Below, in pieces: positions 11,747-42,417 of a stretch of DNA of 64,000 bases. Both the position numbers and the translations under genes were made by a program. Origin of the DNA: a virus; IMG/VR virus record IMGVR_UViG_3300045988_113151; one strand, given 5' to 3'. Below the pieces are notes generated by a model, which saw nothing but the letters and a program-made list of their open reading frames with translations, did not search any database and had not been told where the DNA came from. Position 1 is the stretch's first letter; each line of letters starts with the position of its first letter.

Positions 11747-11763
11747 AAAATATAGTTTTATAG

Positions 11764-12900: not shown

Positions 12901-12941
12901 AATAAAAAAGTAGTTAGTAAGTAATATACCTACTAACTACT
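12901..12941 (-). terminator. intrinsic terminator-like hairpin
   Basis: A 15-bp stem with one mismatch (agtagttagtaagta / tacctactaactact) and a 3-nt loop. On the minus strand it is followed by CTTTTTTATT. Confidence 0.5.
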
Positions 12942-12976
12942 AACTACTAAAAATAAACACACAACAATAAAAACAA

Positions 12977-13483
12977 CTAAGCTGCCAAGCTTAAAGGAGC
13001 GATAGTATCATCAAACTCCGTTTCGTTATTAAACTTTTCAAGTTTATTGTTCAATTCAATTATTTGTAAATCTAGTTCTTTAATACGTGCAAATTTCCAG
13101 TTAGAAGTAAAAATTTCTGTACGATTTAAATTTTTCTTACCTTTCTTTGCTTTAAGAACAGGATTTAATGTTCGAAAACTATTTGAACTAATTTTATTAC
13201 GAATTTCTTTTAGCTCACATAGACGAAAAATGTCTAACTGATTACAATCTTTCGGTAAATCACTTAGTTTCTTAAGTCCCATATTAATAGCAAGTAACTT
13301 AAGTTTAATCAATGCACGCTTTTCAGCAAGCATTTTGATTTCTTCAAATAAAACTTTTAGGTCATATTTACGCATATAGTTTTTATTTACTACATTTTCT
13401 GCATAAATAATGTCCCAATATTGTTTTAACTGATATGATATATTATTACGTTCTTCTATAAAATTCTTTGATTTCTTTGTCAT
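12977..13483 (-). CDS. hypothetical protein (ends ..PLSLAA, TAG stop)
   Basis: ORF track. Confidence 0.6.
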   Translation of the reverse strand: MTKKSKNFIEERNNISYQLKQYWDIIYAENVVNKNYMRKYDLKVLFEEIKMLAEKRALIKLKLLAINMGLKKLSDLPKDCNQLDIFRLCELKEIRNKISSNSFRTLNPVLKAKKGKKNLNRTEIFTSNWKFARIKELDLQIIELNNKLEKFNNETEFDDTIAPLSLAA

Positions 13484-16938: not shown

Positions 16939-17361
16939 TTATTTCGCGCTTTGCTGCTCTAGTTGCGCGTCAGTTTTATCTTCACTGATAATATTTACCT
17001 TACATGTGTTAAGGTCTAGAAATCCGACATAGTTAGTTCCTTTTACTAAGTCTATTGTTTTATGTTTGATATCATACGAAGATACAAACGAAATAGGGTC
17101 AAATACAGTAGCATCGAATTCATCTAATTTCTTAGATAGTTCTTCTACTCTATATTCTAACTTCTTAATAAGTAAACTAGATTGATTAAGTATCTCATTA
17201 ATTTGTTTGTTAAACTCATGAGATACTTTACCATCTTCTATGACAATTCTAGTAGCAGAAGAAGCTTTAGACAACTCTATTCTGCTGTTCTTTAAATTGC
17301 GAATAACTTCTGAAGTACGAAGCATGTGTTGAACGACTAGTCTATTTCTCGTCATCTTCAT
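16939..17361 (-). CDS. hypothetical protein
   Basis: ORF track. Confidence 0.55.
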   Translation of the reverse strand: MKMTRNRLVVQHMLRTSEVIRNLKNSRIELSKASSATRIVIEDGKVSHEFNKQINEILNQSSLLIKKLEYRVEELSKKLDEFDATVFDPISFVSSYDIKHKTIDLVKGTNYVGFLDLNTCKVNIISEDKTDAQLEQQSAK

Positions 17362-17752
17362 TATTATTCCAAATTAAAGGTTCTACATTATTTCGTATAA
17401 TTACCTTGTTCTCCAATACGAGAGGAGCAACACGATATGGCGCAGGTCGATTATCCACTACGACAGGCTTCTCAACTATACGCTCAATATACTTTTTAAT
17501 TGTTCGTATACTATCTTTCTTAACAATGTTTACATTAGCAGTAGCTGTACCTTCTACTGTAACTTCTTCATTCTTAAGGTCAATATTAATAGTAGATGGT
17601 AAGATTGTTTCAACAGGTCTTGGAACATCTACATAACGAGGGACAGGAGCCAGTTCTGCCTTTGGTGCAGTTTGTTTAAGTGCATCATAGCTAACAAAGC
17701 TTCCGAAAGTTAAGATACCTAGTATCATTAACATATTAATACGGTTATTCAT
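17342..17752 (-). CDS. hypothetical N-terminally membrane-anchored protein (TAG stop)
   Basis: Hydrophobic N-terminus MLMILGILTFGSFV. Confidence 0.55.
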   Translation of the reverse strand: MNNRINMLMILGILTFGSFVSYDALKQTAPKAELAPVPRYVDVPRPVETILPSTINIDLKNEEVTVEGTATANVNIVKKDSIRTIKKYIERIVEKPVVVDNRPAPYRVAPLVLENKVIIRNNVEPLIWNNNEDDEK

Positions 17753-19793: not shown

Positions 19794-20351
19794 TTAGTAA
19801 ATATTTGCTATTTTTTGTTTTAATCGTTGTCTTGCTTTATTTAAATCTGATTTAACTTTAGATTCTGGTAAAGCAAATTTTTCAGATATCTCATTATAAG
19901 ATAGACCTTCTATTCGAGCGTTTATTAAATCTCTATATTTCTTTCTAAGTGTTAGAATAGCTTGTTCAACTATTTTTACTTTTTCTTGTAAAACTAATTG
20001 TTCTTCAGGACTTTTTTCGATATTTTCTAATTGAATAGTATTATCTTCATCGTCCATATAGTTATTTAATTGCTCTTTCTTATTTCTTCTTATATAATCT
20101 ATTGAACTGTTAACTGCAATAGTTTTTAACCACATTTCAAATGAAATATGTTGTACATAAGAATCTAATTTTTGATAAGCTTTAGTAAATACTACAGATG
20201 TTAAATCATCTGCTATATCTGTATTCTTTACTATATTATAAATAGTAAACCAAATATTTGATTTATATAATTTATAAAGCTTAGTAAAGGCACTTTCTGA
20301 ACCTTGTTTAGCCTGTTCTACTAAAGTAATTACTTCTTGTGTCATAGGCAT
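19794..20351 (-). CDS. ECF-type sigma-70 family RNA polymerase sigma factor
   Basis: Region 2-like DIADDLTSVVFTKAYQKLDSY...FEMWLKTIAVNSSIDYIRR and a region 4 HTH LSYNEISEKFALPESKVKSDLNKARQRLK. Confidence 0.8.
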   Translation of the reverse strand: MPMTQEVITLVEQAKQGSESAFTKLYKLYKSNIWFTIYNIVKNTDIADDLTSVVFTKAYQKLDSYVQHISFEMWLKTIAVNSSIDYIRRNKKEQLNNYMDDEDNTIQLENIEKSPEEQLVLQEKVKIVEQAILTLRKKYRDLINARIEGLSYNEISEKFALPESKVKSDLNKARQRLKQKIANIY

Positions 20352-20397
20352 AAAATATTAGTGAGCTATAGTCTACCCAACGACTATAGCCCTAAGT

Positions 20398-20808
20398 CTA
20401 AAATGGTAAAGTCGATATATAGTATCTACTACATTCAGCAAATCTAAAGTTAAACAAAAGAAGTATATGATTTCCCCAGTATATTTTAGCAATCTCTGGT
20501 ATTTGTAATTTATCTATCATATTTATTACAATTCTAAGTTTTACTCTAGATGTACTTTCTGTAATAGTAAATCCTTTATCATTTATTAGACAATCTACAA
20601 TAGGTTGAAATATAGTTCTATTTGCATATCTAGCTAATTCTACTACTTCTTTACTTCTATGAATAGTAAAATCTAAAGGATAGATATGCGGATCATCTTC
20701 TATGTTATAATACTTATCACTAAGATATTTTTCACATATAGGATTATAATTGAACATATATTCATAAGGTAGATTTTTGTTAATAGTATCTAAAACTTCG
20801 ATAAGCAT
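20398..20808 (-). CDS. hypothetical protein (TAG stop)
   Basis: ORF track. Confidence 0.55.
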   Translation of the reverse strand: MLIEVLDTINKNLPYEYMFNYNPICEKYLSDKYYNIEDDPHIYPLDFTIHRSKEVVELARYANRTIFQPIVDCLINDKGFTITESTSRVKLRIVINMIDKLQIPEIAKIYWGNHILLLFNFRFAECSRYYISTLPF

Positions 20809-20812
20809 ACTA

Positions 20813-21268
20813 CTAAATATAATTAAGAAATTTCTTAATTTTATTTTCTAAGATATTTGATGCTTGCCCAACATCAATCTTATACTCTTTACAAATTGTA
20901 ATAATGAATTTGTTGTCACATTCTGCTGTTCCATACATCTCCATATACGCTTTGTACTTTTCTGTGAGTTCTTTGATTTCCTCATCTGTTATTACTTCAC
21001 ACTTTTTAAAAGTACGAGTACCAATTCCTAATAAACTATTAACAGCACTAGTTACGGTTAATTTATCAAATGTATATTGGTCGGGATTTTGAACAATATG
21101 TTGTACTTCAATAGAATTTTCACCTAATTCTTTTACTCTTCCAGTATTAAAGAATTCATTCATTGAGATACCTTTTAAAATTTTGATAAATGGAGCCTCA
21201 CCTACTGCTTTAATAATTATGTTCTGGCTAGGTCCCTGAGCCATCCATACTCCTTCTTTTAATGCCAT
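20813..21268 (-). CDS. hypothetical protein (TAG stop)
   Basis: ORF track. Confidence 0.55.
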   Translation of the reverse strand: MALKEGVWMAQGPSQNIIIKAVGEAPFIKILKGISMNEFFNTGRVKELGENSIEVQHIVQNPDQYTFDKLTVTSAVNSLLGIGTRTFKKCEVITDEEIKELTEKYKAYMEMYGTAECDNKFIITICKEYKIDVGQASNILENKIKKFLNYI

Positions 21269-22067: not shown

Positions 22068-22141
22068 TTCACGGAGCAGGATTCGAACCTGCACTCATTT
22101 CCCATATCCGTTCTGTGTCTAACCAATTGCACCATCCGTGA
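22068..22141 (-). ncRNA. tRNA-like element without a canonical anticodon stem
   Basis: Minus strand: TCACGGA...GCAGG-TTCGAAT-CCTGC-TCCGTGA-A. It has a 7-bp acceptor stem, a perfect T arm and a D-loop-like AATTGGTTA. The 22 nt where the anticodon arm should be (AGAACGGATATGGGAAATGAGT) cannot form a stem. Confidence 0.45.
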
Positions 22142-22283
22142 CCTGCTTTTTACGACATTAGCTTAGCCGTTGACTTATCGTATTACGCTGCAATACGAGT
22201 ATAGTCTGTTACAAAAGATTTGTCATTTCTGACGTCTATTGACCTATTCATTTTCATCCTCGCTGTCAAATCCATAATACCCC
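22142..22283 (-). ncRNA. ssrA: tmRNA-like coding piece (5' acceptor strand, tag reading frame)
   Basis: Minus strand: GGGGTATTATGGATTTGACAGCGAGG... (compare E. coli GGGGCUGAUUCUGGAUUCGACGGG). AATAGAC-GTC precedes the frame GTC AGA AAT GAC AAA TCT TTT GTA ACA GAC TAT ACT CGT ATT GCA GCG TAA (compare E. coli AAUAGUC-GCA AAC GAC ... GCA GCU UAA). The 3' limit is uncertain. Confidence 0.6.
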
Positions 22284-22382
22284 ATTAGTAGGATTTTCAC
22301 CTACTTTGAAGCTTTGCGACATTTAGTCTAGGAGTGGTTTATACCCTTGCCAAGAGGAATCGAACCTCTATGCTTCTGACCG

Positions 22383-22440
22383 TGGAGTATGAGGGAGTCG
22401 AACCCTCGTCCAAACGATTCATCCAATGACCTAACAGTCA
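22383..22440 (-). ncRNA. ssrA: tmRNA-like acceptor piece (P2 3' strand, T arm, 3' acceptor strand)
   Basis: Minus strand: ...ATCGTTTGGAC-GAGGG-TTCGACT-CCCTC-ATACTCC-A. ATACTCC pairs with GGGGTAT at 22283-22277, including a G3.U70 pair. GGAC precedes the T stem as in E. coli tmRNA (..UUUCGGAC-GCGGG). UCGUU can pair with AGCGA next to the GAC of the coding piece. The 5' limit is uncertain. Confidence 0.55.
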
Positions 22441-22997
22441 ATATAGTAGTATATAGTTAAATCAATAACTATATACTTAAATATGAATAAACTGTAGGTA
22501 AGTATAATAAAAATAATAATCGGAAATATACTTTAAATACAGAGGCAGATAACTTACTATATGTTTAAAGATTTACTTCTATATCTAAGAGTAGCATCAA
22601 CTATTACTTTATTATAGGCTCTAGGCTCGCTTACTCTACAGTTTTAAATAGGCTTTGATTGCATGTATAGTATAGCAAGTGCTCATGTAAAACAGACTCG
22701 ATTGAACTATAGGCATAAAGCTCTCTATACATATACAATTTGATTTTGTGTACTGTTTATCGTCATAAGACTATTCATAGTACAAACTTCGCCAGTTTTA
22801 TACCCTCGTGGCTTATAGCTCTTGAGTTTAGAACGATCTTTAGGCTCATGATCAGTGGCACGTTTTTTACCCAGCAAAATGGGTCAAGCCTCTATTGCTT
22901 GTTGTCAATTCAACTGTGTACAACATCCTGCATCAAAAGACGACTTATCATGTTCTATGTACAGATTTGTCATAAAGACTTCTTCTTGGGTTGTCGA

Positions 22998-23423: not shown

Positions 23424-24000
23424 AATTGTTTGAAATTTTAATTGTTAATAATTGATTTATTTAAGAAATGAATATTAATAGTATATCTCACTAAGTTCAT
23501 TACTGAGTTCTTTATTTTCCTCTGTAAGATATTCAATTTCTACTTGAGATTCTAATATAATTTCTATTAGTTCTTCTTTTGTTTCTGTTTCTAATTCTTC
23601 TTGTGTCCACATAGACTTTTAAATTTAAGAGAGTTATCTGTCTATTCGTACGTCTTATTCAACAGAAGCCCTTTTCCTTCTCCTGACCTATTACTAGGTT
23701 GACCGTTGTATAGTCCGTAGTACTCTATCTGTTAAGATTCCTTTAGGGGTTTGGCTTTATAACTCTCTAGGCTTAACTTCACCATAACTTAATAATTAAG
23801 TTAAAAACAAATTATCTGGCATGATAATATTAGTTGTTATAATAAATATTACTTTATTACTACACGCATGGAGATTTTACCTTCCACGTTTATAAGGCTC
23901 TAATTTCTTATGCCTTATTTTCTTTTTAGATTGATACTCGTAAGCTTTTTCAGATTGCTTAGATCCTGGAAAATGAGATTCCTTGTAAGTCTTTCCCATA

Positions 24001-24885: not shown

Positions 24886-25013
24886 TACATGATTTTAACG
24901 CCCGCACGATCATAAATACATTTAATCAATAGGTTATTTATAATTTGCATACGTATGTCTCACTAATTTTAATCAACTATCATAGTATTTACTTACGCCC
25001 CACATGTTTGTCA
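24886..25013 (-). repeat. bipartite conserved intergenic element, copy 1
   Basis: Plus-strand boxes tacatgattttaacgcccgcac (24886-24907) and gccccacatgtttgtca (24997-25013). The same two boxes occur in the same order at 26927-27020. Confidence 0.7.
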
Positions 25014-25077
25014 TCTTCTGAAGGAGCTATATTCCTGTTTCTCAACTGTAATATAGCAAAGACAATTTTAAAATAAA

Positions 25078-25503
25078 CTAAAATGAAGATTTTAAAGAGT
25101 CGTTCTTTGGTTCAGGTATACTTGGTTTAGGCATACTGTCTGGTAAATATTGTTTTTGCACATCCATAGCATGTTTAATAATCTTATCATAGAACTCTTT
25201 ATTTGTAATATAAGTATTTACAATATCTTGAATAGATATTTGTGTTCCTTTTGTTACAAGTATTTGAGTAACTATTTGAGTAGGCATATCTAAGTATACA
25301 CTATCACAATAGCGATAAAATCTCATTTCTTCTCTTTCTTGCAATACTTCCTTTACAGAAGGAATGTATTCTTGTTCAATAGAATCCGTATCAGGGATAT
25401 CATTGATTGCTTGTGGTTTTTTCACACAGCTTGTTAGTATAGTTATTAACATAACTATTGCTAAAATAGCAAATAATTTTAAAGATTTAAATTTTTCTTT
25501 CAT
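25078..25503 (-). CDS. lipoprotein (TAG stop)
   Basis: Signal peptide with lipobox MKEKFKSLKLFAILAIVMLITILTSC. Confidence 0.65.
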   Translation of the reverse strand: MKEKFKSLKLFAILAIVMLITILTSCVKKPQAINDIPDTDSIEQEYIPSVKEVLQEREEMRFYRYCDSVYLDMPTQIVTQILVTKGTQISIQDIVNTYITNKEFYDKIIKHAMDVQKQYLPDSMPKPSIPEPKNDSLKSSF

Positions 25504-26112: not shown

Positions 26113-26333
26113 TCTTTAATTTGATTTAATAGTTGATTACTAGAATTCTTCCAATTAGAAAGTAATTCATTAAATTTATCTCTTAATTCTAACAATTGTT
26201 CTTTCTCTTCATCTGTTATACATTTATAATCAGATTCAAGAGTAATAAGTAAAGAAGATAGATTACATTTTAGACCAAATAATCTAAAATAAGTAAAATT
26301 CCTATACCTATTTAGCTTTGATTTCTTGTTCAT
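26109..26333 (-). CDS. hypothetical protein
   Basis: ORF track; it has a 4-nt overlap with the upstream gene. Confidence 0.45.
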   Translation of the reverse strand: MNKKSKLNRYRNFTYFRLFGLKCNLSSLLITLESDYKCITDEEKEQLLELRDKFNELLSNWKNSSNQLLNQIKE

Positions 26334-26640
26334 ACTTTGCTATTTTATTATAAATTATATTCCAATAGTGAATACCTTTTATTGAATCTTTCCAAGAAAA
26401 AGTAGTTATTATATAAAATATTACATAATTACTTCTTTTTTTATATAGGTTGAGACCTCTATAATTATAATTACGAAAACTCATATTATAATGTATTACT
26501 TCGGAAACAAATTCACTCAAACAATTAAAATGAATTAAAGCGTGTAACAAGTTATATGACATGTTTGTCATAATGTGATGTCTCATATCCTGCTTAATTC
26601 GTTTTAAATCTTTGTCTGTATAATCTACAATATTTTCCAT
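26308..26640 (-). CDS. hypothetical protein (TAG stop)
   Basis: ORF track. Confidence 0.5.
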   Translation of the reverse strand: MENIVDYTDKDLKRIKQDMRHHIMTNMSYNLLHALIHFNCLSEFVSEVIHYNMSFRNYNYRGLNLYKKRSNYVIFYIITTFSWKDSIKGIHYWNIIYNKIAKYEQEIKAK

Positions 26641-26926: not shown

Positions 26927-27020
26927 TACATGATTTTAAAGTCTGCACTAATGCTAGTTCAAGTGAGCTGTATAAATCAATATACATTTCAGACTAGACA
27001 TAAGCCCCACATGTTTGTCA
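26927..27020 (-). repeat. bipartite conserved intergenic element, copy 2
   Basis: Boxes tacatgattttaaagtctgcac (26927-26948) and gccccacatgtttgtca (27004-27020). Confidence 0.7.
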
Positions 27021-27047
27021 AGGATTCTCACCTTAATAACTTATAGT

Positions 27048-27170: not shown

Positions 27171-28117
27171 AATTTAATAATTTTATAAATTTGCATTTTA
27201 CACCTAAAACTTATAAGGGTAATAGGACTCGAAATTAATCTATCCTAAAACTTTATTTATTACCTACTAAAAGAAGTAGAACTTATAAGAAACTGGTGTC
27301 CTCAATGTCTTGGAAGGTTATTGAGTTTTTTAAATATCTGTCTTTCCAGATCGCCAATATTAGTTTATACTCCTAATATTAGAGTTTACTATCTTTAATA
27401 CCTAGAATAAGATAGCAGATTGTTTAAAAGAATAGTATAATCTTCCAAAACTATACTATTCTTTTGTATTATCAACACTCACTATTACACACAGTAGCTA
27501 ATTGTGTTTATTTAGTGACTAGATTCATAGTGGAAATGATTCCTTATGAGAATCCTACTTACTAGCTAGACTCTTGCGCTCGATATTGACGTTGTGGCAA
27601 TCAACAACAATATTTTTCACAATCGAGGGTCTTATTTCTCGGCAACTCCTACTTAATTTAAATTTGAATATATTTATATATCCCAAGTAATCAACAGATA
27701 TTTGGAGCACTATTTTACATCATTGTTTTCACGCTGATTGCTCGTTTTTGATCTTTTAATCAATATATACTTGATCAGTATGTATATATCTATGCTTCTT
27801 ACTTTCTGAGCGAGTTTGCGATTCTCAGATTTCATATTTTCTATTACCACGCATTGGCTAATTAGAAGAGCCTTAATTAAATTAAAATAACATAACTTGC
27901 ACAGTTTGTTTAGTTATGACTAACCAGCCTGTGACTAACTTCTGGTTAGTCTTAATTTAATTACTAGTCTTTACAGCGCTAGCTCTCTGTTTAGTTATTA
28001 TAAAGATAATTAAATTAGAAAAAATTGCTATAATGATGACTCAATTGTAGTGATATGCAGAAGCGATGGACACTTTCATGTCCACGCTCTGATTGACGAA
28101 TAAGCTATATATTAGTA
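27171..28117. other. about 0.95-kb ORF-free, hairpin-dense island
   Basis: No ORF of 60 aa or more. Perfect 10-bp stem gactaaccag/ctggttagtc, 9-bp aatagtata/tatactatt, a gcgtggaca..tgtccatcgc hairpin right after the stop of 28118-28798, and the motif gcgagtttgcga shared with 16551. Confidence 0.45.
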
Positions 28118-31857: not shown

Positions 31858-31988
31858 CTTACAGATTAAAAATACTTGCTGAAGATGGGGATCATTTCTT
31901 ACTTGAGGATGAAGAAGGACCAGTATGGTTTTTAAAAGAACAAGTAAATAATATAATAATTAAAGACGATGAAACTGATAGAAAGTAA
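31803..31988 (+). CDS. hypothetical protein
   Basis: ORF track; it overlaps the alternative-frame candidate 31609-31857, so one of the two may be spurious. Confidence 0.4.
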   Translation: MQRYAEIIEQGRGRRGTITYRLKILAEDGDHFLLEDEEGPVWFLKEQVNNIIIKDDETDRK

Positions 31989-33744
31989 AGTAGAGATGCT
32001 AATACAAGGTAGTGGTATAGAAGGGATTTATAAGCAAATAGAGTTAGCTGGTCGTACTTGTTATAAATCTGAGGATAAAATTACTCCTACTTCAGCTAAA
32101 GAGTTTACAGATAGAATGATTAAATCAAAACACTGTTATACTGGAGAAACAGAAGTGCTAACTGAGAAAGGTTGGATTAAATTTAGAAATTATAACGGAG
32201 AAAAGGTCGCAGTAATAAACAAAAATTGCTCCTTTAAAGGATTTGAGTCTCCCAGCAGAATAGTAAATTATTCTTATAAAGGAAATTTCTATTATTACCC
32301 ATCATTAGGTATTGAAGTAACAGATGGTCATAATATGTTTGGAGTATTTAGAGAAAGTAAAAATAACTTCTATACTAATTCTTCCTATAATTTATTTAGT
32401 TGTAATACTCCATATAGAGATAATAACGGTAGAGAAAAAACATTAGGAGAAAGAATGTTTAAATCCCCAAGGCACTGTGTTAAACCCATATCTCTGAATC
32501 CTTATGGTGAATTAATTGGATTTTGGTTAGGAGACGGCTGTTATTCTCCTGAAACTAAAAATAAATTAGTATTTCATCTAAAGAAAGAGAGAAAAATAGA
32601 ATATCTTAGACGAATATGTAATGAATTAGGATATATTTTTGAGAAAAAAAAATCTAATTATTACACAGTTACTAATAATAACATAGGAAGTTCTTTTAGT
32701 TCATTATTTTATAATAATGGGAAAAGATTATCCTTACAATATTTTCCTTCTATAGACATTGCATATTCTATTATAAACGGATTAATAAACTCAGATGGAA
32801 GTTTGGGAATTAACACCAAAACTATCACTTTTACTAATACTAGTAAAAGTATAATAGACTGGTTATTAATGTATGCTCCTATATGCGGTTACTCTATCTC
32901 TGATAGAGGAATATCTCATAATACCTCCTTAAACAATCCTGTATATAAAGTATTATTGTTAGATACTAATTATACTCTAAACAATGATTCTAGGAATAAA
33001 GATTCTAAGGTTATTATTACTAATAAAGTGGAAGAGGTGTATTGTGTAACAGTATCTACAGGTTTAATAATGGTTAGAGGAACTAATGGTGTTACTACTA
33101 TCTGCGGGAATTGTGCTATGCTTGAACACGGTACTATTTATCTTACTATTGCTAAGACAGTTACAAACATTGGAGATCCTATATTCTATGTTAGAAATAA
33201 ATACTCTAAAGTAAATGAGGATGATCTATTTTACTTCATAACTACTAATATGCGTGTACTAGTAGAGAATAATAGACTAGATGATTTACAATATCAAGTG
33301 GAACCTACAGAATTTCATGAGAAACGCATTACTGTTAAGTTTATATGTGATAGAGGAGTAAGTCATGAGTTTGTAAGACATCGTGTATTTAGTTTCGCTC
33401 AAGAAAGTACTCGTTATTGCAACTATAGTAAGGATAAATTTAATAACGAGCTTACTTTTATCACACCTACTACAAAAGAAATAGGAGCAAAAGGACCGTA
33501 TGAACCTAATGATACATTTACAGTAGCTTTAATGCAAGCAGAAAAGAACTATTTTGTTCTTATTCAAGAAGGATGGAAACCTCAACAGGCAAGACAAGTG
33601 CTACCTAACGCTTTAAAGACAGAACTAGTAATGACAGGATTTATAAGTGATTGGGAACACTTCTTTGAACTGAGATGTAGTAAAGCAGCCCATCCTGATG
33701 CACAGAAGTTAGCTAATGAATTAAAAGAACTAATTTACAAGTAA
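31969..33744 (+). CDS. thyX: FAD-dependent thymidylate synthase ThyX, interrupted by an intein
   Basis: Extein motifs AGRTCYKS, KSKH|CAMLEHGTIY (compare KHGHETPFEH in ThyX) and the ThyX signature FVRHRVFSFAQESTRY. Confidence 0.85.
   Translation: MKLIESKVEMLIQGSGIEGIYKQIELAGRTCYKSEDKITPTSAKEFTDRMIKSKHCYTGETEVLTEKGWIKFRNYNGEKVAVINKNCSFKGFESPSRIVNYSYKGNFYYYPSLGIEVTDGHNMFGVFRESKNNFYTNSSYNLFSCNTPYRDNNGREKTLGERMFKSPRHCVKPISLNPYGELIGFWLGDGCYSPETKNKLVFHLKKERKIEYLRRICNELGYIFEKKKSNYYTVTNNNIGSSFSSLFYNNGKRLSLQYFPSIDIAYSIINGLINSDGSLGINTKTITFTNTSKSIIDWLLMYAPICGYSISDRGISHNTSLNNPVYKVLLLDTNYTLNNDSRNKDSKVIITNKVEEVYCVTVSTGLIMVRGTNGVTTICGNCAMLEHGTIYLTIAKTVTNIGDPIFYVRNKYSKVNEDDLFYFITTNMRVLVENNRLDDLQYQVEPTEFHEKRITVKFICDRGVSHEFVRHRVFSFAQESTRYCNYSKDKFNNELTFITPTTKEIGAKGPYEPNDTFTVALMQAEKNYFVLIQEGWKPQQARQVLPNALKTELVMTGFISDWEHFFELRCSKAAHPDAQKLANELKELIYK
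32134..33111 (+). mobile_element. intein with LAGLIDADG homing endonuclease in ThyX (326 aa)
   Basis: It starts CYTGETEVLTEKG. Block B is VTDGHNMF. LAGLIDADG motifs are LIGFWLGDGCYS and IINGLINSDGSL. It ends ..VTTICGN followed by +1 Cys. Confidence 0.8.
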
Positions 33745-33883: not shown

Positions 33884-34332
33884 AAATAGATAAATATGAA
33901 TGCAGCTTTCCTGGTAATTTATGGGTAGTAATATTAGATTATAATGAACCATTGGGTAAGATAGTAAACAAGTTCAACTTCTATAAAATGGATGGTAAAT
34001 TTAATCAATTTAATGAGGAAATAGAAACAGGTTTACTAGAAGACAGACGTAGAGCTATAGCTGGTTGTTATTCAGTAATGGAAAAAAGTAGCGGAGACCT
34101 AGGTATACTTTGTTTAGTATTTATAATAGATCTAATGGATGCTAATACTATTGCACATGAATCAGTGCATATAGCTGATTACTATTATGAAGTTGGCGGG
34201 ATATACTCAGAGTCATTTTCAGATGGAAACGAATCTTATGCTTACTTAGTAGGTTGGTCAGCAGGCAATATATCTAAAACAGTAATAGACTATGAAAGAA
34301 GAAGAGATAAGAAACAACGAGAGCACATCTAA
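33880..34332 (+). CDS. putative zinc metallopeptidase (HExxH)
   Basis: Motif IAHESVHIADY. Confidence 0.5.
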   Translation: MKIDKYECSFPGNLWVVILDYNEPLGKIVNKFNFYKMDGKFNQFNEEIETGLLEDRRRAIAGCYSVMEKSSGDLGILCLVFIIDLMDANTIAHESVHIADYYYEVGGIYSESFSDGNESYAYLVGWSAGNISKTVIDYERRRDKKQREHI

Positions 34333-35257
34333 AAAGAATGATTTTAAAGATAATAAACTTAGATGGGACTTACTCCCGTTAGAAACTATTGAAAACTTAG
34401 TAAAAGTTTATTCATTCGGTAGCAAAAAATATTCAGATAATAGTTGGCAGAATCTTGACAATTTCTGGGAAAGATACAAAGCAGCATTACTTAGACATTT
34501 GACAGCGATAGAAAAAGGTGAATTCTATGACAAAGAAAGTGGATTACCGCATTCGTCGCATCTAATGTGGAATGCAGTAGCTCTGGACTATGGGTTTACT
34601 CACGGTAAAGGTAAAGTAGTATATAAGGATATCCCTGGTTATGAAGAGTTCTACTATGCAGATAGTAATGGGAACATCTATTCGAAAGACAGGTTTCATA
34701 ACACCTCTCAAGGAGGATTCATTAAAAAGGGTAGAATGTTGAAACCTTTCAAAAACAATCGAGGGTATTTGAATGTATCATTATGTGGTAACAATGGACA
34801 AAAGACCGAAAAAGTGCACCGACTGATCGCAAAAACGTTTTTAGATAATCCAAACAACTATCAAGAAATTAACCACAAAAATGAAATAAAGGATGACAAT
34901 CGTGTTATAAATTTGGAATGGTGCGACAGATTATACAATATGAATTATGGTACAATAAGATCCAGATTAAGCGAACACGCTGATTCTAAGAATAGAGTAA
35001 AACCAATAGTAAGATTAAATAAGAATGGAGATGTTATCCGCAAATATGAGTCGATTACTTCTGTAAAAGAAGACGGATTTGACCCAAGTTATGTTTTGAA
35101 AGTTTGTAGAGGTACTAAACAAGAAGCATACGGGTTTGTTTGGAAATACGACGACTTAAATGACAACAGTCTGTTAGAAAAGTTAAACAAACGTATAGAA
35201 GAAAAGATAAATAATTGCAATAAGATATTAGACGAGTTAGAAACAACTCAAAAATAA
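34292..35257 (+). CDS. MazG-like dNTP pyrophosphohydrolase domain (DUF5664-type) fused to a NUMOD4/HNH homing endonuclease
   Basis: N-terminal part NKLRWDLLPLETIENLVKVYSFGSKKYSDNSWQN...LRHLTAIEKGEFYDKESGLPHSSHLMWNAVAL. Then YKDIPGYEEFYYADSNGNIYS (NUMOD4-like), GYLNVSL...KVHRLIAKTF...INHKNEIKDDNRVINLEW (HNH_3-like) and GFVWKY. Confidence 0.65.
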   Translation: MKEEEIRNNESTSKKNDFKDNKLRWDLLPLETIENLVKVYSFGSKKYSDNSWQNLDNFWERYKAALLRHLTAIEKGEFYDKESGLPHSSHLMWNAVALDYGFTHGKGKVVYKDIPGYEEFYYADSNGNIYSKDRFHNTSQGGFIKKGRMLKPFKNNRGYLNVSLCGNNGQKTEKVHRLIAKTFLDNPNNYQEINHKNEIKDDNRVINLEWCDRLYNMNYGTIRSRLSEHADSKNRVKPIVRLNKNGDVIRKYESITSVKEDGFDPSYVLKVCRGTKQEAYGFVWKYDDLNDNSLLEKLNKRIEEKINNCNKILDELETTQK

Positions 35258-35269: not shown

Positions 35270-35773
35270 ATGGAACGATTGAAATTTAAGAAATTAGATT
35301 ACTCTGTAAAAAATGCAGAGGGAGTAGAAGAGATTAAGAAGTCAGAGGGTGTATTACCAACTAGAGCTACAGCGGGAGATGCTGGTTTAGATTTATATTC
35401 TACTCGTATGACACAAGAAGTAGATAATAGTGGCAAATTAGTTTTAGTATATCATACTGATATCGCTGTAGAAATCCCAGAAGGTTATTGCGGCTTACTT
35501 ATGATGAAGTCTTCTGTAAGTAATAGATCTATCTGTTTGACTAATGCCGTAGGGCTAATTGACTGCTTTTATAGAGGGGAGATAATGGCTAAGTTCAAAG
35601 TTACAACAGATGCAGTGCCTACTGTATACTCAGTTGGTGAAGCATTCGCTCAATTAGTAATAGTTCCGTGTTCAATCCTTGAACCAGTATTTGTAGAAGA
35701 ATTAAGCGAAACCGAAAGAGGCACTAAAGGATTTGGAGAAGCCGATGTAATTATTCCGGAAGAGGTAAAATAA
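35270..35773 (+). CDS. dut: dUTP diphosphatase (trimeric dUTPase)
   Basis: Motifs ATAGDAGLDLYS, GLIDCFYRGE and RGTKGFG. Confidence 0.9.
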   Translation: MERLKFKKLDYSVKNAEGVEEIKKSEGVLPTRATAGDAGLDLYSTRMTQEVDNSGKLVLVYHTDIAVEIPEGYCGLLMMKSSVSNRSICLTNAVGLIDCFYRGEIMAKFKVTTDAVPTVYSVGEAFAQLVIVPCSILEPVFVEELSETERGTKGFGEADVIIPEEVK

Positions 35774-35774
35774 T

Positions 35775-36323
35775 ATGTTACATTTCTTTGATATAGTAGG
35801 AGGAGAAGTAGTAATACATGCAGACTTATGGGCACTACCGCCATTTGAAAAACTATGGAATCTAGATAAAGATCCTACTAAAGCTCACGCTAATAAGGTA
35901 GTAAAATTTATTATACTATGTGATTACTGGAATAGCCCATATGTAAAGAGTATTAGTAGCACTGAGCTTAGAGAAAAGAAGTTAAAAGAAAGGATATTTA
36001 AAGATGAAAATTACTCTCTTACTTTAGATGAATAGATAAGCAGAGATGAGTATAAAGAGCTTATTAACACTAGAAACCTTAAGATGCTAACTTCTATTAT
36101 GAACAAATTAGATACTATCAGTAATTACTACGAATCCTCCTTAGAGGAAGAATTAGATGAAACCAAAATAGGTAAGTTGTTAGCAGGATTTGAGAAAGTA
36201 AAAGGTACAATGCAAACTATAGATTTTCTAGAAAAGTCTGTTAAAGCAGAAGAGCTCGATAATACTAAAGTTAAAGGTAATTCTCAGATTAATCCATACG
36301 AGTTGGTAAAAAAAGTACAGTAA
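35775..36323 (+). CDS. hypothetical protein with in-frame TAG at 36033
   Basis: ORF-track fragments 35775-36035 and 36084-36323 share one frame and are separated only by TAG plus 16 sense codons. Confidence 0.55.
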
Positions 36324-36373
36324 CCTGTAACATAAAAAATAAAGTTACGTTTTACAGAAAAAATAAAGAAACT

Positions 36374-36592
36374 ATGAAAAAGAAGAAATTTTATACCAAG
36401 AAAGAAGAAGTTTATTTAGATTTGACAAATCCTAATCAGACAGTTGGTGAAGCTATTGCACAATCGAATGCTGAAAGAAATGCTATCAAAGAATCTGTTT
36501 ATGAAATTATAGAAGAAAAGATGGCTGAAGAACCAACAAAAAAATCTAAATGGTATACTAAGTTTTGGAATAAATTAAAGAACTTATTTTAA
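36374..36592 (+). CDS. hypothetical protein
   Basis: ORF track. Confidence 0.5.
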   Translation: MKKKKFYTKKEEVYLDLTNPNQTVGEAIAQSNAERNAIKESVYEIIEEKMAEEPTKKSKWYTKFWNKLKNLF

Positions 36593-36635
36593 AATATATG
36601 TCTAACGGGGATAGACATTAAACATTCCCCGGCAC

Positions 36636-36707
36636 TCTCCTGTGATGTAAAGGTAACATATTGAGCTCTAACCTCAAAATTGTCCGTTCGAGTCGAGACC
36701 AGGAGGA
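36636..36707 (+). tRNA. amber suppressor tRNA (anticodon CUA), probably Gln-type
   Basis: TCTCCTG-TG-ATGT-AAAGGTA-ACAT-A-TTGAG-CTCTAAC-CTCAA-AATT-GTCCG-TTCGAGT-CG(A)GAC-CAGGAGG-A. The anticodon CTA is at 36668-36670. There is a U1.G72 wobble and a one-nt bulge in the T stem. U1 and the GGTAA D-loop resemble tRNA-Gln. Confidence 0.75.
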
Positions 36708-36742
36708 CTAATAAAAAATAATTTAATGTTACTATCACAAAT

Positions 36743-39700
36743 ATGATAGACTTCTAGAAAAAAATATTAAATAGCAATAAGTTTAGACAAGCCTGTATTC
36801 AATTTTAGAATACAGGCTCTTATTGTTCATATCCTTCAGGAACATCTGAATACTATCAATTCTGGGATGAAGAAATGAACAGATGTATTAATGGTTATAC
36901 TACCGATGATGGTGATTACATCACAGGGTATAACTATTTTTATATAAACTATTGCCCTATACAAAGAATAGTACATACAGTAAAGAAGTTGCCAGATGGT
37001 ACTACTAAAGTAATAAAAACTAGATCATTATAGTTTCCAGACTTTTATGACTATGACTATTACTTTTTCTTAGCAATGACAGAAGCTGAAGAAAAAGGTA
37101 AACATATGTGTGTACTTAAATCACGTCGTAAAGGTTACTCTTATAAGAATGCAGCAATGGCATGTCGTAACTATTACTTAATACCTAACAGTAAGACTTA
37201 TATATACGCTTCAAATAAACAATATCTAACAGAGGATGGTATACTTACTAAAGCATGGGATTACATGGACTTTATAGATAAAAATACTGCTTGGGGTAAG
37301 AAGAGATCTGTGAATACATCAATGCGTAAAAGAGCTGGTTTCTTTACTAAAGATGAATTTGGTAATGAAATAGAAATGGGTTACAAGTCTGAAATAATTG
37401 GGGTATCCCTAAAAGACAATCCAGATGCAACTCGTGGTAAAGCTGGTAAACTTATTATATTTGAGGAAGCTGGTTCTTTTCCAGAATTAGGAGCTGCATG
37501 GTAGATTGCTAGACCTTCTGTAGAACAAGATGGTATAGCATTCGGAACAATGGTAGCATTTGGATGTGTGTGTGCTGGTACTAAAGTATGGACAGCTAAT
37601 GGTAAGTGTGTATCTATTGAGGAACTCAATCCTAAAGATGGTATAATGGGGTGGGATACATATTAGGCTTATCCTCAAAATATATCTAATGTAAATCCTC
37701 CAGCAAAAAAACCATGTTTAAGAATAACTACTAATACTGGTAGAACACTAGAGTGTAGCACAGATCACCCGTTGTTATGGTCTACTCCAGGTAAAACAAA
37801 AAGAGTACCTGGAAAAAGGAAAGAAAATGAACGCATGAAATCATGGTTATGGCACAAAGCTGAACTATGTAAAGTGGGAGATCAGGTTGGAGTTATTGAT
37901 GAAGTACCTTATTTTGGTGACAAGAAAATGTGGGAACCAAGATTAGTAGGATGGTTGATAGGAGATGGTAGTTATGGTAATAATAAGACACCAATACTTA
38001 GTAATTGCGATGAATATATAAACAATTATATATTTGAGAACTTTAATGCTAAAGTAGAAAAATCCTATCTTACTAAAGATAATAAATTATACTGTGAAAC
38101 TAGGATCAAGGGTATATGTAAGAATTTAAGAGAACTAGGTATATATGGACAAACTAGAGGTAATAAAACATTACCTATTAACATAGATGATTATGATTTT
38201 GAAAGCTTATCAGAATTAATAGGAGGACTATACGATACAGATGGCTATATTAGAGTAGACAAAGATGGGAGAGTGAGAGTAATACTTACTCAAGCTTATG
38301 ATACTTTATTAAAACAGCTTCAGATATTGTTAATTAAATTTGGTATAAGCAGTTCTATTCGTTATATAAAATATAAAAATGAAAGAGTTCATATATCAAA
38401 CGGGAAAACTATTAGATCTAAGAATGGGGAGTACAGATTAGAAATAAACGATATTACAAGTGTGTGTAAGTTTGCTGATAGAATTCCTCTAACAGTTCAA
38501 TACAAGTAGTCAGCTTTAGATATGATATTACTATTTTCTTAGAAACATATAAATAAGTATAATAAGTATTTATGTGGCGTTCACGCTGAAAGAATAGTAA
38601 GTATAGAAGACATAGGACTACAAACAATCTACAATCTTACTGCAAAAGAACAAAATAATTACATAGCTAATGGTATAGTAACTCATAACACTGGCGGTGA
38701 TCCAGGTAGTAGTTTTGAAGCTCTTAGAGACATGTTCTATAATCCAGACGGATATAATTGTTTATCATTTGAAAATATATGGGATAGTGCAGTAAGTAAT
38801 ACTAAATGTGGGTTCTTTATACCTCAGTATACCAATCTAGATATACGTAATGAGGATGGCAAAAGAATATATATGGATGATGATGGTAACACTAATGTTA
38901 AGCTGTCTCTACAATATATACTCGATGAGCGTAAAATAGTAATACAAAATGCTACTAGTTCTGTTGCTGTTGATAGATATGTTGCTGAAAGATGTATTAC
39001 TCCTTAGGAAGCTTGTTTGGAATTTAACGGTAATATATTCCCTAAAAAAGAACTTCAAGAATAGCTTGGTTTAATACGTACAAATAAAGCACTGTAGAAC
39101 CATAAACAAGTTGGAGATCTTATATTTGATCAGTCTGGGTAGTTGAAATGGATACCTAAGAAACTTGGTGATATTACTAAATATCCTTTAGGTAAGGATG
39201 ATGACCCAAAAGGTGCAATAGTAATATGGGAACATCCAGTTAAAGATGCTCCTTCAGGATTATATATAATAGGAGTAGACCCTTATGATCATGATTAGTC
39301 TGGTACAAATTCTTTAGGATCATCTATAGTGTATAAAAGATTTCAGAGCTTTGAATCTTATTATGATATTATAGTAGCTGAATATACTGGTAGACCTGCA
39401 ACAGCGGAAGAGTATTATGAGAATTTACGCAAGCTAGCGATTTACTATAATGGTAGAATAATGTATGAAAATGAACGTAAAGGTTTGTTCCCTTATTTTA
39501 CAGCAAAGCATTGTGATTACTTATTAGCAGATCAGCCTGATATAATAAACGATATAGTAGGTAATTCTAAAGTACAACGCAAAAAAGGCTGCCATATGAA
39601 TAAGCAAATAAAACAATGGGGTGAAGGCATGATTAAAGACTGGTTAAATGAGGAGTATGCACCAGGTAAGAAAAATCTTACTAGAATACTATCTGAACCA

Positions 39701-39925
39701 TTATTAGAAGAACTAATAAGCTATAATGATACTGGAAATTTTGATAGAGTGATGGCTTTAATGCAGGTAATGATATACAAAGAGTAGTTATATAACGTTG
39801 TTGTAAAACAGAAAGAAAAAGAGAATAAAGCTAAGCTGTTATTTGATGGGCCAATCTTTGCGCAGAGTTGGTTCCAAGATGACAAACCAAATATCAGTAA
39901 TGACGATAATGTATATACATTTTAA
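36743..39925 (+). CDS. terL: terminase large subunit (TerL), intein-containing, about 13 in-frame TAG codons
   Basis: All fragments (37076, 37772, 38732, 39329 and the manual 36743 start) share one frame. Motifs: GYNYFYINYCPI, FPDFYDYDYYFF, CVLKSRRKGYSY, KLIIFEEAG, FG|TGGDPGSS, IIGVDPYDHD. It ends at TAA 39923-39925. Confidence 0.85.
37565..38689 (+). mobile_element. intein with LAGLIDADG homing endonuclease in TerL (375 aa, three in-frame TAG)
   Basis: It starts CVCAGTKVWTANGK. Block B is LECSTDHPLL. LAGLIDADG motifs are LVGWLIGDGSYG and LIGGLYDTDGYI. It ends ..NYIANGIVTHN followed by +1 Thr. The extein junction reads MVAFG|TGGDPG. Confidence 0.85.
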
Positions 39926-39927: not shown

Positions 39928-42417
39928 ATGAAGAATTTAAAATCAATGCCGATTTAGAAACTCTCTATGTTCAAAAAGAATAAGGAGTGGAGGCAAGCTT
40001 GTGTAGACTATATCATAGGTGCTAGTGATTCTGGCTAGGGTAATTTAAATAGAGATAGATCTGATGAAATGCAGACTTACTATGATTTGTACAATAGTAT
40101 ATATAATGAAAAGGATCTAAAGTATGTTACTAATCCATTTAAACAAGATGATGGATTCCCTGCTACAGCTTAGGACTATAATATAATAAAGCCATACATA
40201 GATCAGTTACTAGGAGAAGAAACTAAAAGACCGTTTAACTTCTATATAGCTAGAACTAGTGATGATGCTGCTAGTGAACTTCAAGAGAAAATGAAACAAA
40301 TGCTAATGGACTATATCTATGCTACTATTACTAGTAAACTAAGCCCAGAGCAAGCAGCTAGATATGAACAAGCATTAGCTACTGGAGAAATTATGACTCC
40401 TGAGTAGATACAAAAATATGTTAATAAAGATTATAAGGATATAGCAGAAACCACAGCATATCATACGCTATAGTATCTTAAGCGTAAATTGAATTTGATA
40501 CACGAATTCTATAAAGGGTGGAAAGATGCGTTAATAGCTGGTGAAGAGATTTATTATGTTGGTATAGTAAACGGTTAGCCATATACAGAAAGAGTAAATC
40601 CTATGTACTTTAGGTATGAACAATCTTTAGACTTAGAATTTATTCATGAGGCTTCATGGTGTTGTAGGAAAATGATTATGTCGGCTACAGAACTATATGA
40701 TAGATTTTATGATAAAATGTCAGAAAAACAGCTGAACGATTTACTAGATTTAATAGATGAAAAACCAGGTACTTCTCCTGAAATAAGGAAAACATCTATG
40801 GATTACACTCACTATAAAATGTCTAGCATAAATGGTTTTACTGCCAACCCTTTTGATGCTAATCATATTACTGTATATCACTGTTGTTGGAAATCATTTA
40901 AAAAGATAGGTTTTGTAAGTATAACAGATCCATAGACTGGAGAAATAGAAGAGATACAAGTAGATGAAACTTATAAACCTACTGGTAGAGAAAACTATGT
41001 AGAATGGAAATGGATAGTTGAAACTTGGGAGGGTTATAGAGCTAATGATGATGAATATATAGGTATTCAACCAATAGAATATCAACATATATCAGCAGAC
41101 AATCCTAATTCATAGAAGTTACCATATACTGGTGTTGTATATAATAATACTAATAGCAGACCTAGATCTTTAGTAAGCATGATGAAACCTTTACAATATA
41201 TGTATATTGTAGTATGGTACAGACTTGAATTAGCTATGTCTAGAGATAAAGGTAAAGTAGCTTTGATAGATGTTACTTAGATACCTAAAGGATTAGGTAT
41301 AGATGTAAATAAATGGATGCATTACTTAGGAGCATTAGGTGTAGCATTTATTAATCCTTATGAAGAAGGTTGGGATGTTCCAGGACGTGAAGGTGGTAGA
41401 CCAGCTCAGTTTAATCAGTTTCAATCATGGGATCTTAGCATGGCTAATGTGATAGACCAGTATGTAAACCTAATGGCTAAAATAGAAGATATGGTAGCTA
41501 AACTTACTGGTATTACTCCTTAGAGATAGGGGCAAATAGCTCCAAATGAGCTTGTGTCTAATGCTAGTACAGCAGTAAGTATGTCTTATCATATTACTGA
41601 ACCTTGGTTCTGGACACATAATCAAGTAAAGAGAGAGGTTTTAACAATGCTATTAAATACAGCTAAGGTAGCTTGGAAAGACAATAAAATGTGCTTGAAT
41701 TATATACTAGACGATGCTACCAGAGCTTTTCTTAAATTATCTGATAGATTCTTCTATGAAGATATGGATGTGTTTATTGACGATAGTACTAAGAATAGAC
41801 AAGACTTAGATGCTCTTAGAAATCTTATGTAGCCTGCTATGCAAAATGGTGCTAGTTTACTTGATATAGCTGAAATAGTTACATTAGACAATGTAAATAT
41901 GATTAAGAGTAGATTAGAGGAAATTGAGCAGAAACGTATGGAACAAATGCAGCAACAACAACAAGCTGAGCAGCAAGCTCAACAAGAACTAGTTGAAAAA
42001 CAAAATCAAATAAAAGAAGAGGAGTTGATGATTAAAGAAGCTGAAATGGATCTTGAAAAATATAAGATAGATCAAGATAATGCTACTAAAATTACAGTTG
42101 CTCAATTAAATGCTTATAGAGGGTCTGAGAATATGGATCAAAATGAAAACGGCATACCAGATCCTATGGAAATAGCAGCTCAGGCTTTAGAAGAAAGAAA
42201 ACAGGCATCAGAAGAAGCTTCTAAACAATTTGAGTTCAATAATAAGCGTAGAGAAGTAGAGATGAAGAAAGAGATTGAAGATAAAAAAATTCAACTTGAA
42301 AAGGATAAAATCCAAGCTTAGAAAGAATTACAAGCTCAAAAAGATAAAGCTGCAATGGAAAGAGAGAGATTAAAAGCTAAGACTGCAATTAGGAATAAAG
42401 TAACAGGAGAGCGTTAA
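39928..42417 (+). CDS. portal protein (829 codons, about 13 in-frame TAG)
   Basis: Fragments 40603, 41317, 41554 and 41839 are in the same frame as ATG 39928. It follows TerL. It has a Q-rich coiled C-terminus and the sequence ITP-TAG-R-TAG-GQIAPNE. Confidence 0.75.

Follow-up and report, generated by a model that had tools for sequence, protein, structure and literature searches.

A phage-encoded amber-suppressor tRNA of probable tRNA-Gln descent precedes the recoded late genes of a crAss-like phage and adjoins a conserved RNA pseudoknot

Introduction

Passages of several studies of code-15 gut phages describe late structural genes that are recoded, replication genes that keep the standard code, a phage-encoded suppressor tRNA, and a host synthetase that is assumed to charge it (Ivanova, 2014; Yutin, 2021, PMC7886860; Borges, 2021, 10.1101/2021.08.26.457843; Peters, 2022, PMC9523058). 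According to Yutin (2021), many crAss-like phages, the delta group (now Suoliviridae) among them, have reassigned TAG to glutamine (Gln), mostly in late genes, and encode suppressor tRNAs; inteins in the TerL of the delta group are described in the same source. A proposal set out in passages of Borges (2021) is that recoding holds back late and lytic gene expression until the machinery for the code change has been made; they add that many suppressors probably escape detection, and discuss a detection rate of 35–40%. Metaproteomics described in part of Peters (2022) confirms that TAG is read as Q in crAss-like phages other than the one considered here. We describe a locus of the same kind in a 64,000-nucleotide (nt) stretch of viral DNA, IMG/VR record IMGVR_UViG_3300045988_113151 (the window, by which we mean the whole stretch), in which an original prediction made from the sequence had placed an amber-suppressor tRNA with the anticodon CUA, hereafter tRNA(CUA), at positions 36636–36707 of the + strand, directly upstream of the TerL gene.

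Published passages on recoded phages also describe code-change machinery that is itself written in the standard code and lies directly upstream of the recoded genes. The window has the same layout; it differs in that the machinery is a lone tRNA, and in that this tRNA stands before packaging and head genes rather than before lysis genes. We conclude, with a probability of roughly 0.85, that the element at 36636–36707 is the phage's own amber-suppressor tRNA, that it descends from a Bacteroidales tRNA-Gln, and that it serves late genes written in genetic code 15. That a suppressor tRNA precedes TAG-rich late genes is already known for this phage family. A pseudoknot immediately upstream of the tRNA, a second pseudoknot before a tRNA-Arg, and the swapping of tRNA cassettes among close relatives appear to be undescribed; the passages of Yutin (2021), Borges (2021) and Peters (2022) that were found by keyword make no mention of a fixed slot before TerL in the delta group, of the bulge in the T stem, of the upstream pseudoknot or of the cassette swapping.

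Results

A tRNA with a CUA anticodon stands directly before TerL

ARAGORN called three RNA genes in the window, one of which is a tRNA with the anticodon cta at 36636–36708(+). The Rfam tRNA model RF00005 matched 36636–36707 over its whole length (model positions 1–71 of 71), with a score of 42.5 bits against a gathering score of 29 and an E-value of 1.2e-5 for the whole window or 4e-8 for a local search. The label "tRNA-Pyl" that ARAGORN attaches to the call is merely the tool's name for any CUA anticodon. As read from the sequence and the Infernal alignment, the 72-nt cloverleaf consists of an acceptor stem TCTCCTG/CAGGAGG with a U1.G72 pair, a D arm ATGT-AAAGGTA-ACAT, an anticodon arm TTGAG-CTCTAAC-CTCAA with CUA at 36668–36670 (the anticodon is at position 33 in the ARAGORN call), a 4-nt variable loop AATT, and a T arm GTCCG-TTCGAGT-CG[A]GAC, in which Infernal places an unpaired A (36696) as an insertion in the 3' strand between positions 62 and 63. 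The discriminator is A36707; it is followed by CT, and no CCA is encoded. A 7-nt anticodon loop, U33, a purine at position 37, GG in the D loop and a TTCGA T loop, all canonical features of elongator tRNAs, are present, the T-stem A36696 being the sole deviation. The TerL gene starts with the ATG at 36743, which leaves a gap of 35 nt after the tRNA, and the TerL N-terminus MIDFqKK is kept in relatives.

The cloverleaf details given in the original prediction (U1.G72, the bulged A, the 4-nt variable loop, the lack of CCA, the CUA anticodon and the 35 nt to TerL) were all correct by sequence and Rfam. Its expectation that standard scanners may score the gene poorly was borne out only in that 42.5 bits is below the 69.3 bits of the window's tRNA-Arg; the gene nevertheless clears both ARAGORN and Rfam, and RefSeq annotates the homologue in cr52_1, which has the same bulged T arm, as tRNA-Gln. 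Neither ARAGORN nor Rfam found a second CUA tRNA in the window. The minimum free energy fold of the lone sequence was not a cloverleaf and was no better than those of shuffled sequences (z = -0.51); because folds of single sequences are uninformative for tRNAs, we relied on covariance models and covariation.

The tRNA and its irregular features are conserved

A tRNA(CUA) occupies the same slot in all seven GenBank relatives, with ARAGORN assigning the anticodon cta in each, including the unannotated MT836538. In the six that are annotated in RefSeq (cr52_1, KNV46_gt01; cr6_1, KNV52_gt01; cr60_1, KNV49_gt02; cr109_1; cr56_1; cr4_1), a "tRNA-Gln" with the same anticodon and strand as in the window lies immediately upstream of TerL or, where a homing endonuclease has been inserted there, upstream of that gene. 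In sequence, these Suoliviridae tRNAs differ from that of the window in the acceptor, D and anticodon stems; the cr52_1 tRNA has U1.G72 and a T arm GTCCG-TTCGAAT-CG[A]GAC, as in the window. No homing endonuclease separates the tRNA from TerL in the window, in contrast to some of these relatives; TerL itself contains an intein.

Across 88 sources of related loci, 69 have an ARAGORN tRNA(cta) on the same strand and 2.1–5.2 kb upstream of where the portal gene starts. A further six loci hold an interrupted or non-canonical tRNA(CUA) that ARAGORN missed, which brings the count to about 75 of 88. Recurrence of the tRNA in the same place in these 69 sources and six variants indicates that the observation is not due to chance. 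The tRNA(cta) calls in the related loci comprise ~29 distinct sequences. The exact sequence found in the window recurs in four other loci, L011, L012, L013 and L015, all of them IMG/VR contigs, and in L013 and L015 the identical tRNA precedes an intein-less TerL of 685 residues.

The CTCTAA loop was invariant in an 8-sequence alignment. Among ten relatives with the extra T-stem nucleotide, 98.1% of alignment cells at paired positions were paired, and 17 of 21 pairs, spread over all four stems, had changes on both sides. The extra nucleotide was kept in all ten (as A in nine), as was U1.G72, and the three T-stem pairs beyond the bulge varied (GC to CG, UA to CG and CG to GU). Because the bulge and U1.G72 are kept while the stem pairs covary, the irregularities of this tRNA are maintained features rather than products of decay or sequencing error.

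TAG corresponds to glutamine in the late genes

Megablast matches for the window were to crAss-like phages only, all assigned to Suoliviridae by the virus taxonomy committee ICTV (cr6_1, cr60_1, cr109_1, cr56_1, cr4_1 and cr52_1), with TerL and portal DNA 76–81% identical to these six. The gene at 45143–46612 matches the Pfam family Crass_capsid (E = 1.6e-203), and the portal proteins of 80 IMG/VR contigs are 71–98% identical to that of the window. Judged by its capsid, TerL and portal sequences, the source of the window is a crAss-like phage of Suoliviridae type. Its G+C content is 30.7%, and coverage by long open reading frames (ORFs) rises from 48 to 68 kb once TAG is read as sense.

We aligned 88 portal proteins and examined the 13 columns that correspond to the in-frame TAGs of the window's portal gene (39928–42417, +). 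At these columns, Q occurs 465 times and E 176 times in the other sequences, and the remaining residues are less frequent. In six of the 13 columns Q is the sole alternative to TAG, and five of these six are invariant. The correspondence between TAG and Gln also holds in loci that carry very different types of tRNA(CUA). On the evidence of this alignment, TAG specifies Gln in the late genes, which are written in genetic code 15. The TAGs of TerL and of most other downstream genes likewise occupy Gln positions. The claim that the tRNA is an amber suppressor is thus upheld on sequence grounds by its CUA anticodon together with TAG at Gln positions in essential genes.

The distribution of TAG within the window is strongly asymmetric around the tRNA. 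On the + strand downstream of it there are 24 genes with 86 in-frame TAGs in 19 of them, alongside 192 CAA and 79 CAG codons, such that TAG makes up 24% of the Gln codons of these late genes; the 11 + strand genes upstream have four in-frame TAGs in three genes (Fisher p = 1.1e-4). The first TAG is codon 5 in TerL and codon 10 in the portal gene, and it falls within the first 10% of the gene (ratio <=0.10) in nine of the 19 TAG-containing late genes; the major capsid gene has no TAG. The tRNA had been placed "exactly" at the entry to the TAG-rich module. It does stand at the head of that module; the word "exactly" does not hold, since a 182-residue gene at 35775–36323(+), two genes upstream, has a genuine in-frame TAG (codon 87) across which tblastn homology extends.

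On the minus strand, most TAGs lie at the very start or end of recoded ORFs and are probably ordinary stops or lie upstream of the true start. In minus-strand ORFs such as 1645–2007, 12914–13483, 17267–17752, 20308–20985, 25042–25503 and 26263–26640, TAG lies in the last 5–15%; these genes probably end in TAG, and the suppressor would add 7–30 residues to their products.

The tRNA resembles Bacteroidales tRNA-Gln and would be charged with glutamine

In E. coli, glutaminyl-tRNA synthetase (GlnRS) is able to read a CUA anticodon: supE, an amber suppressor form of glnV, and su7, a tRNA-Trp with the anticodon CUA that is charged with Gln, both insert Gln at UAG in competition with release factor 1 (RF1). 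By analogy, the host GlnRS would charge the tRNA(CUA) of the window with Gln; we propose this because CUA keeps U35 and because the weak 1:72 pair fits GlnRS. The likeness lies in the reading of CUA by GlnRS and the translation of UAG as Gln; the difference is that supE and su7 are mutant host tRNAs, whereas the window has a dedicated phage gene. The charged tRNA would compete with RF1 at UAG, and late proteins would be completed only where the phage makes tRNA(CUA), with TerL and the portal protein otherwise stopping at their first TAGs. The proteins scanned with Pfam and PHROG included no release factor and no synthetase.

One genome per species was searched for the D arm seen in the phage tRNAs where a YTYTGR anticodon loop came after it; most matches were in Bacteroidales. 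U1:A72, A73 and the lack of an encoded CCA occur together in 68 of 74 tRNA-Gln genes of the Bacteroidales type, a sample that is biased by the phage-like D-arm pattern used to draw it. Bacteroidales tRNA-Gln genes also have 4-nt variable loops, and G73 with CCA is found in tRNA-Gln of other phyla. The end features of the window's tRNA hence follow Bacteroidales conventions. The resemblance to bacterial tRNA-Gln that had been noted is stronger than was claimed, since U1, A73, the 4-nt loop and the absence of CCA are all host-typical; the remark that the discriminator is A rather than G does not describe an anomaly.

Besides the sampling bias just mentioned, several observations weigh against descent from tRNA-Gln and service to the late genes. 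The window's tRNA is only 67–71% identical to cellular tRNA-Gln, although its best matches are still tRNA-Gln. Its D arm, GATGTAAAGGTAACAT, has A10-U25; a D arm GGTGTAATGGTAGCAC with G10-C25 is found in the cr60_1 and MT836538 types, which are 78–81% identical to cellular tRNA-Gln. In the acceptor and D stems, A10-U25, C2-G71 and U3-A70 of the window contrast with G10, G2-C71 and G3-C70, the identity elements of the E. coli GlnRS, although the E. coli rules may not be those of Bacteroidales and A73 of the window is Bacteroidales-like. Binding of EF-Tu or of processing enzymes could suffer from the bulge in the T stem. Finally, one gene upstream of the tRNA, that at 35775–36323, already uses TAG, at a site where tblastn shows Q, K or TAG in relatives.

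Transcription together with TerL is the most likely source of the tRNA

The distance from the tRNA to the TerL ATG is 14–35 nt in the window and in relatives without an inserted endonuclease. A sigma-70 scan revealed no promoter that stands out in the gap between tRNA and TerL; one weak 9-of-12 match overlaps the 3' end of the tRNA, and the total for the region is at background. The Bacteroides -33/-7 consensus, TTTG-N17-23-TAnnTTTG, has no match on either strand of the 64 kb, where shuffled sequences have a mean of 3.8 (100 of 100 shuffles were counted as reaching the observed zero). Given the short gap and the lack of a recognisable promoter, a single transcript most likely yields both the tRNA and the TerL mRNA, with the supply of tRNA coupled to late transcription and not placed earlier. 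The tRNA would then be transcribed in the same + strand unit as TerL, an arrangement suggested in the window itself by the gap of only 35 nt, and its place at the head of the late operon would make the supply of suppressor depend on late transcription. The tRNA would be cut out by RNase P and 3' processing enzymes of the host, and its end would be completed by the host CCA-adding enzyme.

The original prediction held instead that the timing of the tRNA's transcription sets when TAG-containing genes can be translated. On such a reading, the tRNA would be made before, or independently of, the late mRNAs, and its accumulation would fix that moment. This agrees with the published model, as presented in passages of Borges (2021) and Peters (2022), and with several features of the window: the position of the tRNA at a module boundary is conserved, TAG comes early in TerL, in the portal gene and in 9 of 19 late genes, and the other arm of the genome appears to use TAG as a stop. 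A terminator scan further identified an 11-bp hairpin in the 5' coding region of TerL (36790–36818, +), 47 nt into the gene and with a TAG codon in its loop, which is followed by CTTATTGTT and is thus terminator-like; it is the only such site in 35700–37000, and it is kept in most relatives through compensating synonymous codon changes. This hairpin might attenuate transcription after the tRNA, in which case transcripts from upstream could deliver the tRNA and stop before TerL, and a temporal gate would be rescued. However, the conserved residues S-Y-C are encoded in the hairpin's T-rich tail, and the hairpin may therefore fail to terminate. In addition, a gap of 14–35 nt leaves no room for a separate late promoter, no promoter was identified in it, the Bacteroides consensus is absent from the window, and TAG is already present in a gene upstream of the tRNA. 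We therefore regard production of the tRNA ahead of the late mRNAs as doubtful.

Decoding of the phage's own TAG codons accounts best for the tRNA

A suppressor might instead act mainly on other genes, driving read-through of host genes and early phage genes that end in TAG, with the phage's own TAGs being secondary. Such sabotage of the host, or anti-defence, is proposed in a passage of Yutin (2021), and several of the minus-strand ORFs described above seem to end in TAG and would be extended. We consider it unlikely as the main role. With TAG at 24% of late Gln codons, including those of the essential TerL and portal genes, the phage depends on decoding, and a capsid gene free of TAG fits the cost of imperfect suppression better than an offensive role.

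It is very improbable that the tRNA is a decayed gene whose bulge, U1.G72 and missing CCA mark it as a pseudogene, with another suppressor doing the work. Its Rfam score is below that of the tRNA-Arg and its fold is no better than those of shuffles, as expected of such a gene; against this stand the retention of the bulge and U1.G72 in 10 of 10 relatives amid covariation in 17 of 21 pairs, the identical tRNA in four other contigs, the lack of any other CUA tRNA in the window, and the normal absence of an encoded CCA from host tRNA-Gln. Charging with another amino acid, either pyrrolysine or Tyr, Leu or Ser as in classical suppressors, is the least probable reading of all: the ARAGORN label and the long-variable-arm tRNA(CUA) of loci L048, L050 and L059 would agree with it, but Gln is the sole alternative to TAG at conserved portal columns, also in the long-arm loci, and tRNA-Pyl has a 6-bp anticodon stem, a 3-nt variable loop, a small D loop without GG and a T loop without TTCGA, as opposed to the 5-bp anticodon stem, 4-nt variable loop, D-loop GG and TTCGA of the window.

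A covarying pseudoknot abuts the tRNA

The cgggg..ccccg hairpin that had been noted just upstream of the tRNA is present (cgggg at 36606–36610, ccccg at 36627–36631); it is, however, only one of two interleaved helices of an H-type pseudoknot at 36598–36631(+), which was identified by alignment of upstream flanks, by covariation, and by shuffle and position controls. Stem S1 pairs ATGTCTA (36598–36604) with TAGACAT (36612–36618), and stem S2 pairs CGGGGA (36606–36611) with TCCCCG (36626–36631). Loop L1 is the single nucleotide A36605, there is no loop 2, and L3 is the A-rich TAAACAT. The pseudoknot ends 4 nt (GCAC) before position 1 of the tRNA. It would belong to the same transcription unit as the tRNA.

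This architecture is kept in 19 distinct variants of quite different sequence. We aligned them with our own pairing-based finder, using N-padded loops and artificial anchors, because alignments by MAFFT were out of structural register. All 11 pairs had changes on both sides, and 99.5% of cells were paired, a figure that is inflated by the finder; the bias inflates the percentage paired and not the positional enrichment, and the case for the structure rests mainly on the shuffle, position and host controls. G.U pairs in the alignment were found only in the sense of the + strand, which argues for an RNA structure. A pseudoknot ends 3–9 nt before the tRNA in 29 of 32 distinct upstream flanks, as compared with 3 of 1280 dinucleotide shuffles. 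Across 1.57 Mb of related loci, 57 of 77 pseudoknot matches abut a called tRNA and three more abut an uncalled or interrupted tRNA, and none was found upstream of 159 host tRNAs. At the same threshold, a scan of the whole window gave one match on the + strand (36598–36631) and three on the minus strand.

One of the latter, a second pseudoknot at 11842–11872(-), pairs AATTTAT with ATAAATT and GAGGC with GCCTC. A TAA stop lies 3 nt ahead of its start, and 4 nt separate its end from a tRNA-Arg(UCU) at 11763–11837(-), which ARAGORN and Rfam (69.3 bits) place between protein genes of the arm in standard code. Its S2 is one pair longer in close relatives; relatives of the gene beside the tRNA-Arg are only 95–97% identical, too close for covariation. 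In cr60_1, what follows the pseudoknot is an array of three tRNAs rather than the CUA tRNA directly. Plain hairpins, in some cases terminator-like, lie 2–10 nt before the tRNAs of other crAss-like phages.

We considered several known roles for the pseudoknot. There was no Rfam match to known pseudoknot riboswitches or ribozymes (preQ1-I/II/III, SAM-II/V, fluoride, pistol and others), and within 36560–36780 no Rfam match other than tRNA at E <= 1. An intrinsic terminator does not fit, as no T run follows (tails are GCAC, ATTT, GCATAT and similar) and the terminator scan was silent. A gate specific to the suppressor does not fit the second copy before the tRNA-Arg of the standard-code arm or the array of cr60_1. 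A signal for translational read-through is unlikely, since the distance to the stop codon varies from ~3 to 17 nt and no ORF follows. The pseudoknot is linked to tRNA genes embedded in operons, and is not specific to suppression. Our best guess is that, once RNase P has cut, it would remain on the upstream mRNA as a compact 3' cap, or that it would insulate the tRNA precursor.

Suppressor cassettes are exchanged at the slot

In loci L008 and L009, from phages with 98% identical portals and an identical pseudoknot, the tRNA(CUA) is quite different, with divergence beginning right after the pseudoknot. One and the same pseudoknot precedes at least five tRNA types. These comparisons indicate that the tRNA cassette is swapped among near-identical phages. 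Homing endonuclease genes or a TerL intein flank the slot in many genomes, and endonuclease-driven co-conversion is a plausible cause of the swapping.

In three loci, L010 (5593–6665), L065 (6443–7520) and L077 (6469–7545), an insert of ~1.0 kb interrupts the tRNA(CUA) between anticodon positions 35 and 36, and a 304-residue HNH endonuclease ORF takes up nearly all of it. The last nucleotide is U in the 5' exon and G in the insert, a pattern shared with group I introns; the non-coding remainder is too short to accommodate a ribozyme core, and an Rfam search of the L010 insert gave no group I intron. The portal genes of these loci still have 12–13 TAGs. Three further loci, L020 (~7100–7190), L072 (~6550–6640) and L074 (~7042–7130), have tRNA(CUA)-like genes after the pseudoknot with normal acceptor and anticodon arms, T loops without TTCGA (e.g. 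AGCAGAA) and D loops without GG. ARAGORN misses all three, and they are candidates for the "missing" suppressors of recoded phages.

Other loci have additional arrangements in the slot. L048 (6626–6714), L050 and L059 carry an 89-nt tRNA(CUA) of class II build, with C1-G72 and a long variable arm, and in these loci TAG aligns with Gln. In L002 (cr60_1; 4727–5163), and also in L075 from 4014, the order is pseudoknot, an uncalled tRNA-like gene (GGGAGAG...CTCTCCC, with the T arm TTCGAATC), tRNA(CUA), ~140 nt, tRNA-Met and then TerL.

Neighbouring genes and other features of the window

A small ORF of 72 residues without TAG, taken from the ORF list (36374–36592, +), ends with a TAA stop 4 nt before the pseudoknot; it has no PHROG match, and relatives carry annotated small ORFs in the same slot. 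Products of the upstream module are a ThyX with an intein, a dUTPase, a dNTP diphosphohydrolase fused to an HNH domain, and proteins of no assigned function; a PHROG scan of the ORFs upstream of the tRNA matched the dUTPase, one family of unknown function and a protease, and nothing else. The TerL gene (36743–39925, +) has 13 in-frame TAGs and a Hint/LAGLIDADG intein; it was recognised by translation, by the Pfam families Intein_splicing and LAGLIDADG_3, and by megablast matches to TerL of cr6_1 and others. LAGLIDADG inteins thus interrupt two genes of the window, TerL and the ThyX gene (31969–33744). The single ORF at 34292–35257(+) joins the N-terminal domain of a dATP/dGTP diphosphohydrolase to NUMOD4 and HNH endonuclease domains.

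The minus-strand arm has four ribozyme-type RNAs within 4 kb, namely two Hatchet ribozymes (24887–25025, 85.7 bits; 26928–27040, 89 bits), a RAGATH-9 RNA (23627–23780, 129 bits) and a RAGATH-14 RNA (27414–27650, 169 bits). This phage, which reassigns a stop codon, also has a permuted transfer-messenger RNA at 22092–22472(-), found by ARAGORN and Rfam (48.5 bits), with the tag peptide VRNDKSFVTDYTRIAA followed by a stop; its 3' end is overlapped by an Rfam tRNA match at 22068–22141(-) (36 bits) for which ARAGORN makes no tRNA call.

Discussion

The tRNA itself adds little to what is known, being that of one more uncultured phage of Suoliviridae type that uses a tRNA-Gln(CUA), and we regard it as of moderate to low interest; the pseudoknot and the cassette swapping are the parts worth following. 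For annotation, the comparison with host tRNAs means that features which look irregular by the standard of E. coli are host-typical for Bacteroidales. In loci that have been recorded as recoded yet lacking a suppressor, the slot before TerL may contain a tRNA that is interrupted or non-canonical, as it does in six loci here. These six cases, all missed by ARAGORN, bear on the detection rate discussed in Borges (2021) and on a 2026 preprint on Segatella phages.

The pseudoknot is a small, strongly covarying, phage-specific RNA structure that has no Rfam family. Compact structures with A-rich loops also lie 5' of tRNA-shaped RNase P substrates in MALAT1/MEN-beta, where a triple helix precedes mascRNA, and in plant viruses, where an upstream pseudoknot domain precedes tRNA-like ends. 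Cleavage would leave such a structure at the 3' end newly formed on the RNA upstream. These elements have no homology to the phage pseudoknot, come from other organisms and precede tRNA mimics rather than true tRNAs, and we use them as an analogy for the pseudoknot only. Tentatively, and with the odds somewhat against it, we suggest that the pseudoknot could represent a new class of tRNA-linked RNA: one that stands 4–8 nt before the first tRNA, would act as a nuclease-resistant 3' cap after RNase P cleavage, which would allow tRNAs to be placed within operons in the absence of a terminator, and would in addition be the fixed left border of a hot spot for the exchange, probably endonuclease-driven, of suppressor cassettes of very different build between otherwise near-identical phages. 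It is in any case a candidate for mRNA end formation linked to RNase P.

The claim that the tRNA times late translation is a standing published hypothesis; for this locus, we consider co-transcription with TerL more likely. The fixed order of pseudoknot, tRNA, 14–35-nt gap and TerL makes the timing model concrete for these phages, and it points to a suppressor that is transcribed together with the late genes that it would serve.

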